Source: Eledone cirrhosa
Lineage: Eukaryota
Direction of reading: 5' to 3'
DNA length: 64,000 nt
Assembly: GCA_964016885.1 (NCBI GenBank)
Contig: OZ024741.1
Span: forward strand, 199,144,001 to 199,208,000
Shown here one piece after another: positions 53,401-62,062 of the stretch. A program made the translations under genes and the position numbers. The notes under the pieces were generated by a model. The model saw nothing but the letters and a program-made list of their open reading frames with translations, was not told the origin of the DNA and did no database searches. Numbering within the stretch: position 1 is the first letter of the stretch; each line of letters opens with the position of its first letter.

Positions 53401-54261
53401 AATAGCATCATCAGCAATAGTAATATTAGTGGCAGTTGTAGTAGCAGTAAGAGCAGCAGCAATAGTTCATCAAGATCAATTAATTAATTATTATTTATAT
53501 AATCAACTCTATGTGGATTCTTTCATTGTTTTTTCCACCACAGTTTCCAATTAAAGAGTATTTCGCTGCCATTGTTTACTGTTGCATTTTGGTGCATTTT
53601 TGATGTTTTTAATTAGAGCTGCCACTGACTAACTATATTACTATAGTGATGGTCGTCATCATCATCATCACAATGGTGATAGTAGTGGTGGTAGTCTTGA
53701 TCGTGATGGTGGTGGTGGTAAGGTTGTTGATGGGTTGAGAGGGGGGAAAAGATGGGTGAGATAAGGTTTTCACTCCATACACAGACATAGGGAATACATG
53801 TATACATTCAAACATGTAGATACTTACAAACACACAAACTCACCTTAGTACAGACACATTTATTGCTGGTCATTGCAGTCATGAATATATGTACACAGTA
53901 ATTTTAGTTGAATACTTATCAGACTCACATCTACACATACACATTGGGACACAGATATTTACCGCCATTTTTGGCAGACATACATAAATGTGGACACTAT
54001 GAAAGCATCACAGGACAGATTCACATACATGCAGTACACTATACCATTGTTACCACAATACTAACAGCAGATACATTATAGCAGATACATACAGGCATAT
54101 GCTTAAGCAAACATAAATACATACATACAAACATTTACTCCAATACATGAGTAAACACGTACACAAGCACACACATAAAAAAACCCACATTTGTATCAAC
54201 ACTTTTGATACCAACCCTCCTAAAATTGGGTCTTATTCTATGAAAGAAAACCACCCATGTT

Positions 54262-54462
54262 AACCCTTTAGCATTCATATTACTCTATATATACTATTGT
54301 ATTTTCATGGTAAAGGCTTTACTTCACATAATATCGAATCTATGAGATTTTGAAAGTATTTATTTTGAGAACAATACCTTAACATCAGTTTGAGCGACCA
54401 GTTACAGCCAATTTCAACAGAAGGAGGTAGAGAATTCTGGCCGGTTTGAACATTAAAGGGTT
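54262..54462. mobile_element. piggyBac-like MITE nested in the second MITE family
   Basis: ttaa-ccctttagcatt ... ttaaaggg-ttaa. Confidence 0.75.
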
Positions 54463-55234
54463 AAAGGGTTCCTATTCAAATCAAAATCCTCCAATTTAAT
54501 TTTATATAAGAACCATATATTAAGTTATCCCCATCATTGACAATAGCAAGCAACACCACTGATCGAACACATTTCATACAATACAAACTTTAGCCTGCTT
54601 CTTAGGACCAACTGACATGCGTTTGACTATATTGGTATGGAACACTTCTCCACTGTGGTCTTTGAAAGTCACATTCAAATATTTGCTACTCCCACTGAAG
54701 TTACTATCTTAATGAAATAATTAATAATTTAAGTAAATCCCTCAAAATCAATCATGAATTAATTGAAATAGTGTATTTCATTGGAAATCATCCCCATTAT
54801 CATCATCATCCTTTAATATCCATTTTCCACACTAACACATGTTAGATGAGCTGATAAGCACAACAGGGATAACAATCATACACTTTCTACAAATGGCTGT
54901 TTAATTCAGAGTTCAATCTTATTGTTCAGCACATTGGCCATGTGTCTTCTATAGACCAATACCTTGTCAGTGAAATTTGTTTAACACAAATTGTTCAGAA
55001 GCCAGTAGTTTTAAATTTTTATATGGTTTTTATGACTGGATGCTCTTCTTTATACCAACTACTTTACAGCATGCACTGGGAATATTTTATCTTGACTCCA
55101 GTGCTACTTCCATACAGGGTACACTGAGTACTTTTTGTTGTGGCACCAGTACTACCTCATTATGTCACTAGGGTGTCCATCGTGTCCTTGGCCAGGCTAG
55201 GGAGGTACACACACACACATGAGTATATGATGAT

Positions 55235-55592
55235 TATTATCATCATCATTTTTACATCCATTTTCCATGCTTGCATAGATTGGACAGGTTTGTTTCAGCT
55301 GAGCATCTCTTCACTCACCGCATTCCTTCATCATCTCCTCTGTGAGTTTCATAGATTTAAGATCAGCTCTCACCACCTCTGTCCAGGTCTTCCTCTAGTG
55401 TGGCTTCCTTCCTCTGGGACTTCCAGGAACTTCTGCATCCAGCACTAATCATCCATGTGCATCACATGTCTTGCACACCACTTCAGATTACTCTTAAACC
55501 CAGTTTCTCCCTCAGTTCATCCAAACTCTGCCTTTCTCTTACATTTACATTGCACATTCCACGAAGTATAGTTGCTTCACTTCTCTCCAGCA
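55235..55592 (-). mobile_element. Degenerate RTE 3' fragment
   Basis: Homologous to 37760-38140; (GAT)n tail. Confidence 0.75.
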
Positions 55593-55997
55593 TATTAAAT
55601 GAGGCTAATCAGCCCACTGACACAGGCAAAAAAGCTATATATTTTTGCCTGCCTCAAAGTCCAACAGTAAGCAGGGGGAAGCATTGTTCTGATGAGAACC
55701 ATTTAAGTTCAAAATGCATAGACAATTATTCCCTGCAGCTTCTGCTGGATTCTGCTAGACAGAGTTGGCCGTCAGCTGGGCTTTCAAAATGTTTATTTAT
55801 TAAACATACCATATATCTTTAGATATACAACATTCACAAACACACACAAACACACACACATCTCCCCAACGACTGGCATCTACAAGGGATGATTTGCATA
55901 ATGTTGAGTGATTTAATTAATTTGTTGCATCATCATTTACCAACTAGAACCACTGGTTCTACTCATTGGTAAACGGCCTAACATAAATGATAAATAT

Positions 55998-55999
<2 letters not shown>

Positions 56000-56053
<54 letters not shown>

Positions 56054-56331
56054 TGTCGTTTAACGTCCATATTCCACGCTTGCATGGGTTTGGACGGGAG
56101 TTTTCCCACTTGAGGCAAGAGTGGTTGTCTTGCTCGCATAGGACTGTCTGGCGGGTTTTCTACAGCTGGATGCCCTTCTTAACACCAACCACATTTACAG
56201 TGTGGAACTGGGAGGTTTTTACCGTGTTGCTTACACGGCCACATTACAGCGTGGACTGTGTGTTTTTTTTTTGTTGTGACACCTACACGACCTCATTTGT
56301 TTCGGCATGGATATTGTGGCACCAACATAAT
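56000..56331 (-). mobile_element. RTE 3'-UTR fragment with long (GAT)n tail
   Basis: Matches copy B 10483-10748; (ATC)n at 55998-56052. Confidence 0.92.
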
Positions 56332-56551
56332 CATATATATATATATATATATATATTAGGTATAGGATTATCCAAGATGTAGTAATGGTTAATTACTACA
56401 CTGGATATGGTTGACGTACGGTAAGAGGTTACTCTACGAGTTATGGAAGAATTGTTGAAGAAACTTAGTTCCTGATCCTTCAGTATTCCGGAGTGTATAT
56501 AAAGAATGAATAATAACAGGTTGACATCATAAAAAGGTAATTTATTCCGTG

Positions 56552-56663
56552 TGCTTACAAGTGTTTCCACGGTGGTACTGCAGCCTAGTTATGCTACGTG
56601 CAAATTCACAAGTACTTGCAGAACTCAAATAACCAATGCTGTGACCACTGTTTCCTCAGAGCA
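56552..56663 (-). ncRNA. Type I hammerhead ribozyme in the PLE 3' region, sense to the ORF
   Basis: Stem I UGCU/AGCA, core CUGAGGA (56659-56653), long stem II (acagtggt/accaccgt), GAAA (56567-56564), minimal stem III AC-actt-GU, cleavage triplet GUA (cut between 56556 and 56555). Confidence 0.8.
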
Positions 56664-57163
56664 GAATGGTAAAATGTACAATGTAAATACCCTTAAGTGG
56701 GGTTGTTGGGGAAGATAGAGTAGAAAAGGAAGAGAGAAAAGTAGGGAAGAGGGAGAGAGAAAGAAAGATATGCAGGGGTTGGAGAAGTAGGAGAGAGTGG
56801 CTTGTAGATATCTTAATCAAAATGTTATGGTAGGGGTTTTATTATACTGGTTACTTTTGGAGAGATGCGTTGATAGTTAAGGTCGGACTTATTTATTGCC
56901 CCAGAGGGCAGGTTCATAGATGTTGAGAGGGAGGTAGGCCAAAGGTGAGAGAGAGAGAGTGTAATGGATGTAGAGAGAGATAGGTAGAGAGGGGACAGAC
57001 AAAGTTTGTGTGGTGAGTGAACTTTGGGTTTGTAGTAGTAATCTAGGAATTGCACTGAGTTACCATGTCTAGTGATAAGCAGTGTATTGTCTTGGAGTGT
57101 GGGGGGGGGGGGGAAGAGAAGGTTGTTAGCTAGAAAGCGGTGTTATAGTTACGGGTTCGAATG

Positions 57164-59173
57164 TTAAGTTATTTTATAGTGAGAGAATTTAGCTTTTAGT
57201 TTGTGGTTGCAGTATAATGATCGTTCAATTCTATCGTTAAGTAGTTTGTTTTTGGATTTTAATATGTAAAAGAGCTCAAGGTTACATAACCTACAGTACT
57301 TCAATCCACTCCGATATGCACTTGCGCTGGAAAGTATATCCCATTTTAAGGTGAACTGTTGGTTGTGTTCACGGAGTTGCCAGGTCTTGTTGGCGAGCGT
57401 GGTCACAAAACAGTGATTCGGATGTTTGATTGAGAATCGATGATGGTACCAGCGAGATTTAAACGAGGTGGTGGTAGATCCGATATAATACCATTTCTGG
57501 TCGTTCGATTCAACCGTGCATTGGTAAACAATGTTGGACTTTAGGCATTCATTCTTCAATGGACATCTTTCAGGTAGATGGCAGTTACATTCTTTGTTGT
57601 GGGTAGCGGGTATACCATGGATAGGTTGTGATAGCGGTACAGGTGGGTTGTGTAATACCCGTCTCCCATTTAGTGGTTGGGAGGCAGATATTGCGTTCTG
57701 CCCATCTGTTACTAAAATGTTTTGTTTTGTAGAGTTGTTTAATTGCCTTAAGTTAAGTTTTTTTTATGTATGCTTCAAGGTTTGGTGCCGTGGAGTATGA
57801 TAGTCTAATAGTTTTAGAGTTCAGAATTTTGCTGTATTTATGGGAACTAGGGAAGTGTTTGTTGATTAACTTAAAGAATGAGAGAGATAGTTTTGTACTA
57901 ATTGAGGCATTAAAAATAGGATTGTACCAGATATACTTTCTACAACGTGATTTATTTGGTGGTGATCTTCTATTATTAGTATGTCTGGTAGTACTGTGTG
58001 TGTGTGCTTGTATTTTAGTCCCCCGGTTACGCATTCCTTGATTTCGTGTAGAGCTATGTGTGTTATGGAAATTCCTATCAATGTATTCCATTGTATCCCG
58101 GTGGTCGGCCTTCCTTAATGCATTATTGTAGTATTCAGCGTGTTCACTAAAAATATCAGAGTTAGACGATAGGCGAGATATTCTAAGAGAAATACTCCGG
58201 GGAACTGATTTGATCATGGAGAGTGGGTGGTTTGAGTTAAAGTTAATATATGTAAGGTTCTCATTTACCTTGTGGAAGGGTCGTATCTGTCCGGTATTTA
58301 AATTAAGAGTTACGTCCAGAAAGTTTACTACTTTAAGATTGTATTCGTATGTTATTTTTAGACCCAGTTCACTAAAAGATTTTCTAATATTTTTCCGTAG
58401 CCTTTCAAGATTTTGGTTATTCAAGTTATTAACTAATAAGAGCCCGTCATCTCTGTATATCCCCCCCTGTAGATTACTAAATTTTCCATGTAATATGTGG
58501 GCTATGTAAATTCCCACGAGATCCGTGACCTCCGCCGAGTCGTTGGAACCCATGGTAATATCGAAATTTGTGGGTCTGTCCTTACGTTCCCAGTAGCAGT
58601 TATCGAACTTAATAATGGTTTTTCTAGCCTCGAGAATAATATTAATTTCGTCCTCCGTTAGGTCGGAATTGGCCTTAGCAAACGATAGGGCCTTACGTAA
58701 AGTGCTTGGTGAGATGGAAGAGTAATATTCGTCTATGTCAAATTGTATAAACTTAGATTTATTCTTATTCTTAACATTATTAAACCAGCGAATTGCTTCG
58801 CTAGTGTTGCCCCATAATTTAATTTCTATTTTCTTTTTCACTTGAGTTATTACTCTGTCAAGTATATGTTTGCTAATTTTCCCTATGTCTGATTTAGAAG
58901 GGCATATAAGTCTAATCTTAGGGTTAGAGTCAAAATTTACCTTATGGTCCTTCAGGTTGAAGGTGGGGGTAGTGGGTATAATCGGCTCGGTTATATCGTC
59001 TATCTTGAGATTCTTCACCACTTTATATGCCTCGTTGTTAATATTTGCTAGCGTAGTTTCATTTGTTTTTCTATATTTTTTGTGTAGTTCGTTGCGTATG
59101 AAGTTATTGTACGTATCAATATCCATGGTATACACGTTAGAGGTCTTGTCAGCTTTCACAACAATTCCATTCC
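57164..59173 (-). pseudogene. PLE RT-endonuclease ORF, single frameshift in an A8 run (57758-57765)
   Basis: ORFs 57753-59180 and 57164-57559 join into one open frame if one A is removed. Confidence 0.85.
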
Positions 59174-59227
59174 AGCACACGGAATAAATTACCTTTTTAT
59201 GATGTCTACCTGTTATTATTCATTCTT

Positions 59228-59253
<26 letters not shown>

Positions 59254-59258
<5 letters not shown>

Positions 59259-59859
59259 ATTTTCATATGGAACTGTGTAAGTTGTTTCAACTTAAAAGTA
59301 GAATTAAAATTTAGCTCCGACATACCTGTATACATATAAGTAGGTGAATTTCGTTTATCTAAAGATATACGGTATGTTTAATAAATAAACATTTTGGAAG
59401 CTTTCTAACAATGAATATTGAAAGGCTGGTAGGCAGTGCCATCTAGCAGATTCAACAGAAGCAGTGGAGGACAACTGTCTATGTGCATTTCATGTTTTGG
59501 CTATCCTGGTAAAAGAGGCTAATCAGCCCACCTACAGAAGCGAAAAAACTATATATTTTCACCTATTCCAAGTTTCTGCAGAGAGCAGAGAAAGCACTGT
59601 CCTAATGATAACCAGAGCTTGAATTTCGCAAAGACAGTTGTCTCACACTGCTTCTGCTGGAATCTGCTAGATGGCACTGCCTACCAGCCTTTCAATATTC
59701 ATTGTTAGAAGGCTTCCAAAATGTTTATTTATTAAACATACCGTATATCTTTAGATAAACAAAATTCACATACTTATATGTATACAGGTATGTCGGAGCT
59801 AAATTTTAATTCTACTTTTAAGTTGAAACAACTTACACAGCTCCATATGAAAATTAGAC
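59254..59859. mobile_element. Foldback/MITE with ~227-bp near-perfect inverted arms, inserted in (TA)n
   Basis: 59254-59480 is the reverse complement of 59632-59859 with few mismatches; 151-bp spacer; older relative at ~55597-55840. Confidence 0.9.
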
Positions 59860-61318
59860 TATATATATATATATATATATATATTTATCATTTATGTTAG
59901 GCCGTTTACCAATGAGTAGAACCAGTGATTCTAGTTCGTAAATGATGATGCAACAAGTTAATTAAATCACTCAATTAATTAAACATACTGAATATCTTTA
60001 GACATATGAAATTCGCATACTTGTATGTATAGTTAGATTGGAGCTAAATTTTAAAATATAATATACCACCCTAATTTGCATACCAAGCAATTTGGCAGCC
60101 GACTTTGCCAAAAATTAAAAGAACAAAATTTGTTTTCGTTCTTAACGATATATACATTTGAGAATGCTAAAAGCTTGACTTTGACTGTCCAATTCACATA
60201 CCAACATGTGCGCACACAAATGCATGAATTGTTACACACGCACATGAACATATGTGTATATATACACACAAAGTTGCCCTACCGATTGTACTCCAACACC
60301 CACATATGCCAATAAGGTCAATGTACTCCAACACCCACAAACAATAAGGTCAATGCTTATATATATACACCCATCATCTCACAAATCACAACAAACACTA
60401 TCATCTTTTTTGTTGCATCACCAGTCTGAAGAGCAGATCGATAATAGAGTCGGGTCCATAACCTCTATGGGTGACCCTGAGCCAATTCCTCTGCGAAATG
60501 CACATAACAGTGTGATACACAATATATATATAATGATAAGAATGCTGAAGTTTCATTTACAAGTATTCAAATTTTTATTGGGTATCACCTTGGTACGCAC
60601 ATTTCGCAGAGGATTGGCCTAGGACAAAGACAAAGGAATATATATCTATTTATCTATCTATCTATATGTATGTATATATCCCTTTGTCTTTATATATATA
60701 TTGAAAAGATAACAAGGACAATTGGTTACTCCTTCATTACATTTATTGGTAGGTGACGCGCGTTTCGCCACTGATCAGCTCAAAGTTTGATCTGTATCGA
60801 TCTTACCCAACTCTATAATCCGCAGCTCGACATATGTATGTATCTAAAAGGTAAACAGAAATAACAACACAATTGGTACAGTATATGGAAGGTATATATT
60901 AGGTTAACGCTTTATATAGCAGGAAGAGGGTCTTAATGTTTTGGATGCTAGCCCTATATCAGAAGGAAGAATGAGAAATAAAATAGATCGAGGGGACGGG
61001 CAGGATGGAATTGGAAAAAATGTCTTTAGATAAAAATAACAGGTCCATTCATTTAAAATGCTAGAGAGAACATTTATGAATACATATTAAATATGATTTA
61101 TGAATACATTTAAATATGATTTATGAATACATTTAAATATGATATTTTGCTCTGCTTATAATACAATTGTTAAACCATCTCTCTTTCCATCTAATCGCAT
61201 GGCTCACTAGTCTAGTAAACTATATGCATTGAGCTAATTACATTCTCTCTACTCGCTAGTAATCTGTATAACTAATCACTTCTCTCGTCTCCTGAATAAC
61301 TTACTTGCTTTTTACTCA

Positions 61319-61352
<34 letters not shown>

Positions 61353-61513
61353 TTAATTATACTATTTATGGTTATGTAAATACAAAAACCTTATGCAGTT
61401 ATATGTATTTTTTATACAAACCCTAAATAGTGGTAGGCAGTAATGTATTACTACCTTATTACCAGTAAGTTAAGTAGCTCAATGTAAAAACATCAGTTGT
61501 TCTACAGAGCAGT

Positions 61514-61579
61514 TATATGAAATATAAGAATCAAAGAACTGTTCAAAACATTAATGTTTTGAACAGTTCTTTGATTCTT

Positions 61580-61591
<12 letters not shown>
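61514..61591. repeat. Perfect 78-bp spacerless palindrome
   Basis: tatatgaaatataagaatcaaagaactgttcaaaacatt|aatgttttgaacagttctttgattcttatatttcatata. Confidence 0.95.
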
Positions 61592-61630
<39 letters not shown>

Positions 61631-61669
61631 TGAGTAAAAAGCAAGTAAGCTATTCAGGAGGCGAGAGAA

Positions 61670-61706
<37 letters not shown>

Positions 61707-61773
61707 TTGTCTTTGTCCTGTGTGCCCCTATTTTGAATTTATATCCTAAAGTCTTAATCATACATACATACAT

Positions 61774-61983
61774 CCCTTTAGCATTTAAACCAGCCATATC
61801 TGGCCATACTTTTTTCACCTCTTTATGTTCAAACTGGCTGTAACCGGCTGCTCATATTGATGTTATGGTATTGTTCTCAAAATAAATAATATCAAAATCT
61901 TGTAGATTCCATATTATGTGAGATAATGTGTTTACCGTGAAAATACAATAGTAAATATAGAGCAATGTAAATGCTAAAGGGTT
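61774..61983. mobile_element. piggyBac-like MITE (opposite orientation to 36058)
   Basis: ccctttagcattta ... taaatgctaaaggg termini. Confidence 0.75.
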
Positions 61984-62062
61984 ATACATATATACATCAA
62001 GCATAGAAAAATGGACGTGTAAGGATGATGATGTTAATGTGTCCAAGTTGATGAATTTAAAT

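Follow-up and report, generated by a model that had tools for sequence, protein, structure and literature searches.

Paired 3' ends and scattered 5' ends in a Hydra-type Penelope-like family of Eledone cirrhosa, with one insertion arm that starts at a predicted hammerhead cut

When an arm of a retroelement insertion begins exactly at the base where a hammerhead is predicted to cut, does this record the cleavage of an RNA in a living cell, or is it one start among many? The question is raised by a Penelope-like element (PLE) on the minus strand of the window (the whole stretch of 64,000 nucleotides of Eledone cirrhosa DNA that was analysed), a two-armed, 5'-truncated copy whose arms lie head-to-head (Table 1). 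The first-pass annotation had described a 60-bp inverted copy, with one mismatch, starting base-exact after a predicted GUA cut, and the comparison of the two arms confirms it: the pair 56496-56555 / 59174-59233 spans 60 nt with 1 mismatch, and base 59174 is the A of AGCAC, the first base past GUA (between 56556 and 56555, minus strand). Such a start hints at a ribozyme cutting in living cells and does not show it, and a single junction cannot be assigned to cleavage; the copy itself is an ordinary, inactive insertion of a known clade. Positions within the element are given below as e, i.e., 59174 minus the window position, with the predicted cut lying between e2618 and e2619.

Table 1. Features of the window copy and its flanks (window positions; a dot marks features without strand)
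Feature	Position	Strand	Basis or remark
(TA)n target, left side	56333..56356	.	sequence
142-nt tail, ending at site B (~56354), where the long arm has its true 3' end	56354..56495	-	alignment coverage; read-through of tandem copies into the ORF
60 nt from the predicted cut to site A (56496, pLTR end); the sequence of the short arm	56496..56555	-	inverted-pair comparison; coverage drop at site A
Type I hammerhead motif	56552..56663	-	constrained fold; subfamily covariation; Hydra HHR form as listed in PMC8557442 File S2
Hammerhead stem I	56663-56660/56555-56552	-	
Hammerhead core CUGAGGA	56659-56653	-	
Hammerhead long stem II	56651-56569	-	
Hammerhead GAAA, then stem III (2 bp, ACUU loop); predicted cut at 56556|56555	from 56567	-	
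C-terminal ORF part, comprising the CxCX5C linker and the GIY-YIG endonuclease	57164..57763	-	out of frame with RT here
RT part of the ORF, 5'-truncated	57753..59171	-	begins just upstream of the DKT motif; N-terminal RWK part lost
2-nt junction insert, CC on the plus strand	59172..59173	.	comparison with intact copies; junction sequence
Short inverted arm, from the first base after the predicted cut to site A	59174..59233	+	inverted-pair comparison
(TA)n target, right side	59228..59253	.	sequence

Other parts of the layout had been read differently. The element had been taken to end at 56496, and it continues instead through the 142-nt tail as far as about 56354, where it joins (TA)n; the RT frame had been run to 59173, and the element-derived RT stops at 59171, the last two bases being inserted and absent from intact copies; and the arms, described as joined tail-to-head, meet 5' end to 5' end. 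The insertion into (TA)n was rightly recognized, TA repeats being found at both ends of this copy and at most ends of the other copies examined. The junction has no microhomology accounting for its position, and the two inserted bases, together with the next three, would make a 5-bp snap-back on the short arm. RT and endonuclease (EN) are separated in this copy by a frameshift at an A-run near 57757-57764.

A DNA search of the species' own genome (3.0 Gb) returned 2302 candidates, and an anchor of 26 nt taken just downstream of the cut matches perfectly at 2112 places there, which gives at least 2112 arm copies; tandem copies set the unit length at 3186 nt. The DKT motif is present in the ORF of the window copy, and the RWK motif, truncated away in it, is present in a tandem copy (L244). 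The ORF at 57164-57763, read by eye against section 11 of PMC8557442, carries CNCHLPERC (the CxCX5C linker), CRLC (CxxC) and CNH (CxH), and no CCHH motif was seen in the EN, also by eye. The match to GIY-YIG (PF01541) is weak (E=6e-4, 20.4 bits, against a Pfam cut-off of 22.6), and the Pfam search gave no match for the RT part. RT and C-terminal EN share one frame in 19 of 27 copies, as judged by the length of the A-run. Placed by its motifs, its target and its hammerhead form, the family is a Hydra-type C-terminal EN+ PLE. The sections of Craig et al. 2021 (PMC8557442) that deal with the Hydra clade, which includes Hydra-1_Obim of Octopus bimaculoides, describe the same combination: RWK, DKT (changed from DKG), the CxCX5C linker, CxxC and CxH near the end of the EN, a C-terminal GIY-YIG domain, a (TA)n target and a 3' hammerhead. 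In contrast to those descriptions, the unit measures 3186 nt and not "generally <3 kb", and the tail 142 nt and not the usual 30-40; identity with the Hydra-1_Obim family was rejected, by eye only. Just 5' of YRDD, in the RT catalytic region (about 58461-58467, minus strand), a G-run is 6 to 15 long among 28 copies and 7 long in 13 of them, a slippage or assembly hot spot.

The hammerhead had been called a complete fold, which stands as far as the core is concerned and not for the strength of the fold. The order in the RNA (56663-56552) is CUGAGGA...GAAAC ACUU GUA, and the conserved bases C3-A9, G12-A15.1, U16.1 and H17 are all present (in CUGAGGA, GAAA and GUA); the core differs between subfamilies at N7 only, three older copies with a changed G12 having been selected by the search pattern. 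Under a constrained fold of the window copy, on the other hand, the active structure lies 3.3 kcal/mol above the minimum free energy, with a stable stem II, a stem I pairing probability of about 0.3-0.4, a stem III of 2 bp with a pairing probability of about 0.11, and an A.G mismatch adjoining the core. The G10.1-C11.1 pair closing stem II is absent, its place being taken by A.G here and by U.G, U-A or A-U in other subfamilies. The Hydra hammerheads listed in PMC8557442 File S2 have the same layout, stem II being flanked by one extra base per side and stem III having the AC...GU form, and differ in their loops of 4-9 nt, against a stem II of about 83 nt here (56569-56651, minus strand), whose length and pairing are kept in older subfamilies. 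An Rfam scan of 54000-62000 gave no hammerhead family at E<=1 and only microRNA-model matches to TA-rich hairpins. Among 9 copies spanning subfamilies, 89% of cells are paired, 5 of 15 pairs have changed on both sides, and the covariation score is 0.25 against 0.03-0.12 for slid controls; these are chosen copies, effectively two or three subfamilies with few independent events. Pairs have changed in compensatory fashion across subfamilies, and the structure is kept by selection; its weak fold agrees with a motif that depends on dimerization or on a helper, of the kind considered in PMC4209133.

Where the arms end is much clearer than where they start. In a coverage profile drawn up over selected loci, the aligned coverage drops at site A (e2678), from 213 to 112, and again at site B (e2820), from 95 to 12. 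Both outer ends are visible in 75 inverted insertions, and in 74 of them one arm runs to site A and the other to site B. The first 30 anchor matches on one contig, unselected for breakpoints, comprise 15 rows with A+B, none with A+A or B+B, 11 without a partner found, and 4 cut off or other. Where two arms meet, 54 of 95 inverted junction rows have an overlap of 1-6 nt, 34 have inserts, 6 are blunt and 1 is other. The family thus displays two fixed 3' ends, a pairing of A with B, scattered 5' ends and these junction signatures, and the pairing is a firmer result than any signal at the cut site.

The sharp ends at e2678 and e2820 and their near-constant pairing argue for priming at two sites, and the pathway of nicking, priming and repair that we infer would run as follows. 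An endonuclease would nick both strands of the TA repeat, one nick priming a cDNA at site B (the tail end) and the other at site A (the pLTR end); each cDNA would end prematurely at a mostly arbitrary point (in the window copy, some 2.8 kb along in one case and 60 nt in the other), and host end-joining would link the two cDNA 3' ends via microhomology or a short templated insert. Nearly all templates would be intact across the cut site, either uncut or cut and re-ligated into circles, and the match to the cut would come from chance or from a bias of local structure. The window copy would accordingly be a two-armed, head-to-head, Hydra-type insertion in (TA)n whose short-arm start is probably one draw from the scattered truncation points and not the product of RNA cleavage, and this is the account that we favour. 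Polymerase-theta-type joining and LINE-1 twin priming are familiar background here. In twin priming, two cDNAs from two target nicks are joined by microhomology, leaving an inverted 5' piece; there the internal site at which the second primer anneals varies, and the arms are free of overlap, whereas in the present family both starts are fixed and the arms share sequence.

A precedent is the Poseidon PLE of Anolis carolinensis (PAc), reconstituted in vitro by Frangieh et al. 2024 (PMC11167929): reverse transcription begins at either of two internal sites downstream of the cut, matching tail ends, both strands of AT-rich DNA are nicked and extended, uncut RNA is the main template, hammerhead mutants insert normally, and among the RNA-seq ends described there none was found at the cut. 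PAc belongs to another clade, the two start sites are 142 nt apart in the present family, and the PAc experiments, as described in that paper, gave no strand difference in the start site, against one of each per insertion here. The canonical PLE insertion, as described in PMC8557442 and PMC3846280, has an inverted 5'-truncated copy at its 5' end and a tail at one end only, and it shares with the present insertions the head-to-head arms, the tail on one arm, and the microhomology and palindromes at the junction. What goes beyond these descriptions is that A+B pairing has been counted across a family and junctions have been mapped against the ribozyme.

Could a single cDNA have given both arms? 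If a cDNA folded at an internal palindrome or hairpin and copied itself, with the endonuclease trimming at site A, the hammerhead stems would serve as the hairpins and no cleavage would be needed. Self-priming has been proposed from such palindromes in PMC3846280, and several observations agree with it: near-symmetric junctions are common (4 inverted pairs among the 30 unselected matches start 20 nt or less apart), 38 of 94 partners start in e2590-2678, and stem I supplies microhomology exactly at the cut. Folding back cannot, however, yield a tail-only arm that is not contained in the other arm, as found for 14 of the 56 arms partnered with an A arm and for 8 more that are very short, and the arms of the window copy start 2.6 kb apart. 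As the sole route it is refuted by insertions in which the longer arm does not include the shorter one, and we regard it as improbable here, two-site priming being retained as the preferred reading.

Two features of the arm starts are to be recorded in their own right. The two arms of an insertion often start 20 nt or less apart, even deep in the ORF (e.g., L179, L182/L183, L189/L190 and L201/L202), which would fit two RTs colliding on one RNA. In addition, when one arm starts near the cut, its partner often starts at e2499-2518, the 5' edge of the hammerhead (L036, L043, L085, L091, L092, L101, L109, L112, L123, L154 and L173), where the RNA fold may cause pausing or provide microhomology.

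How do the 5' ends lie against the predicted cut? The arm search asked for the anchor to be kept and the consensus to be lost at a fixed distance upstream, a design that favours no position. Fixed-distance searches gave 101, 119 and 107 matches, and the junction counts rest on the matches listed, i.e., all but 1, 19 and 7 of them; 23 listed matches (12, 8 and 3), judged by eye to be small indels or subfamily variants, were left out of the counts. Rows were dropped as same-orientation indels, older-subfamily substitutions, duplicates or re-calls (21 of 142 in the first set and 19 of 47 in the added set). A direct search at the cut site, which alone has no control, gave 13 matches, 5 of them substitutions and 8 breakpoints, and because all 8 breakpoints recur in the pooled set, capture appears near complete for well-preserved copies. 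Among the matches listed, 6 of the 102 junctions over e2608-2637 in the first set lie at the cut, where 3.4 would be expected (P=0.13, or 0.25 with the window copy omitted), as do 3 of the 28 over e2608-2627 in the added set, against 1.4 (P=0.16). The pooled count among the matches listed is 9 of 87, tied with e2612 (9), with P=0.03 (0.066 without the window copy). Arm starts occupy 18 of the 20 positions around the cut, elsewhere than at the cut there are about 3-4 junctions per position, and junction density has no step at the cut, all of this among the matches listed. At such a frequency several exact matches to the cut are expected by chance in the family, and the match seen here goes beyond chance only mildly.

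The tandem copies bear on this from another side. There are 52 copies that extend from the tail, past site B, into the ORF, and of the 50 examined none starts at the cut, the nearest starts being e2605 and e2628; 35 start upstream of the cut and 15 downstream. A linear RNA with a cut 5' end cannot yield those 35. A re-ligated circular template, as proposed in PMC4209133, could be read through, so the read-through limits the number of cut ends and not cleavage itself. In favour of cleavage as a general rule for arm ends there are the one exact match in the window and a mild excess at the cut; against it, about 0.4% of arms start there (at least 9 found, with 2112 exact anchor copies), no tandem arm does, and at each of the fixed ends A and B roughly half of the coverage or more is gone from one base to the next, with nothing comparable at the cut. 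Cleavage does not set arm ends in general: starts are scattered, the idea that a cleaved RNA end defines the cDNA end as a general rule is refuted for this Eledone cirrhosa family by the tandem-arm and junction counts, and we give it practically no credence. As to where the tandem arms do start, the upstream partial units of L244-L293 begin mostly no more than 400 nt from site B (the start was called at e2400 or later in 33 of 50, and a CT-repeat break is the start in 3 of these 33), with a fall-off as steep as that of ordinary short arms in cDNAs that should already have crossed 3 kb; this clustering could reflect a transcription start, or else a template jump, within the pLTR.

A narrower claim fares better, namely that a few templates carry a hammerhead-cut 5' end, that RT primed at site A ran 60 nt off this end, and that the cDNA was joined to a long arm, such events numbering about 5-6 in roughly 2000 arms, the window copy included. 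Its main evidence comes from two-armed junctions, the kind that the first-pass annotation proposed to tabulate: within 20 nt of the cut, and among the matches listed, the cut base ranks first, holding 9 of 69 junctions where 3.45 would be expected (P=0.007; 0.02 once the window copy is set aside; 0.005 and 0.014 under a chance-extension null), single-arm ends lie there in 0 of 18, and the added set leans in the same direction (3 of 28). The upstream-most start is at the cut in 4 of 26 near-symmetric pairs (P=0.01), pairs that were chosen afterwards, with the window copy and the stem-I pair left out and L031 included. The conserved motif, with its compensatory changes, agrees with this claim, and so do the 3' ends: measured downstream from the cut, site A comes at 60 nt and site B at 202 nt, so that cut RNA gives only short arms from the first unit and a long arm needs an intact junction behind it.

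The same nine junctions, however, can be thinned. L036 and L043, separate loci, are joined through a 4-nt complement of stem I as microhomology, and a junction at another position, with a substitution or a 1-nt deletion next to it, could account for L031 and L128; leaving out these four along with the window copy brings P to about 0.3 among the matches listed, a trimming that was done at the cut position only and leans against the signal. With the 30-nt first set P is 0.07, or 0.15 without the window copy (among the matches listed), and several subsets were tried, which makes all these P values optimistic. Two further tests were dropped. A 3-nt window (e2617-2619) looked enriched in the first set, with 19 junctions against 10.2 over 30 positions (18 against 8.8 in another count), and the excess was not repeated in the added set (4 against 4.2), besides which the microhomology of L084/L106 needs bases upstream of the cut and the insert of L102 copies those bases. 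Partners lie downstream of the cut for 38 of 64 arms starting at or after it against 18 of 55, with an odds ratio of 2.3-3.6 at every threshold from e2611 to e2628, which is a general symmetry of the arms without a peak at the cut.

The histogram of breakpoints that had been suggested as a check therefore gives a divided answer: starts fall at nearly every position and do not pile up at the cut, and the cut base nevertheless ranks first among two-armed junctions, with a mild, fragile, 2-2.5-fold excess. That this excess is real seems to us close to an even bet and no better; if it is, about 60% of the junctions at the cut would be run-off products of cut RNA. The narrower claim of a minority of cut templates is possible and, on balance, unlikely. 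The same doubt applies to its fuller form, in which PLE hammerheads would cut in the germline, a small class of insertions would record run-off to the base, every inverted insertion would consist of one A and one B cDNA, and the read-through of the other arms could stem from re-ligated circles. Truncation at scattered points after two-site priming is the reading that we continue to prefer for the window copy.

The role of PLE hammerheads is at issue here: they are conserved, show weak activity in vitro, and can be dispensed with for insertion in the one reconstituted system. The counts given here set a genome-wide bound, with cut 5' ends making up at most a fraction of a percent of arms in this family, and this bound implies that the ribozyme does not trim the template at its 5' end in the way the R2 ribozyme does; templates are either uncut or resealed after the cut. 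The near-strict pairing of A with B, in turn, gives the known "tail at one end only" the form of a model that can be tested, with each insertion primed twice. In a literature search that covered mainly papers outside subscription, no paper was found that maps PLE junctions against the cut or counts A/B pairing, and no printed genomic evidence of PLE hammerhead cleavage in vivo. If the excess at the cut holds across families, it would be such evidence.

The surroundings of the window copy show further inverted structures. A MITE-like element (59229-59884, with 225-nt inverted repeats, 98%) shares a TA run with the short arm, and pieces of it recur at 55596-55841. A 96-nt inverted pair (97%; 55904-55999 / 59879-59974) surrounds the entire cluster, which suggests nested insertions into an older fold-back element. 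Farther on, a perfect, spacerless palindrome of 39+39 bp (61514-61591) ends in TA repeats and sits within another inverted pair (61275-61349/61600-61674); it could be a head-to-head micro-insertion of another family.
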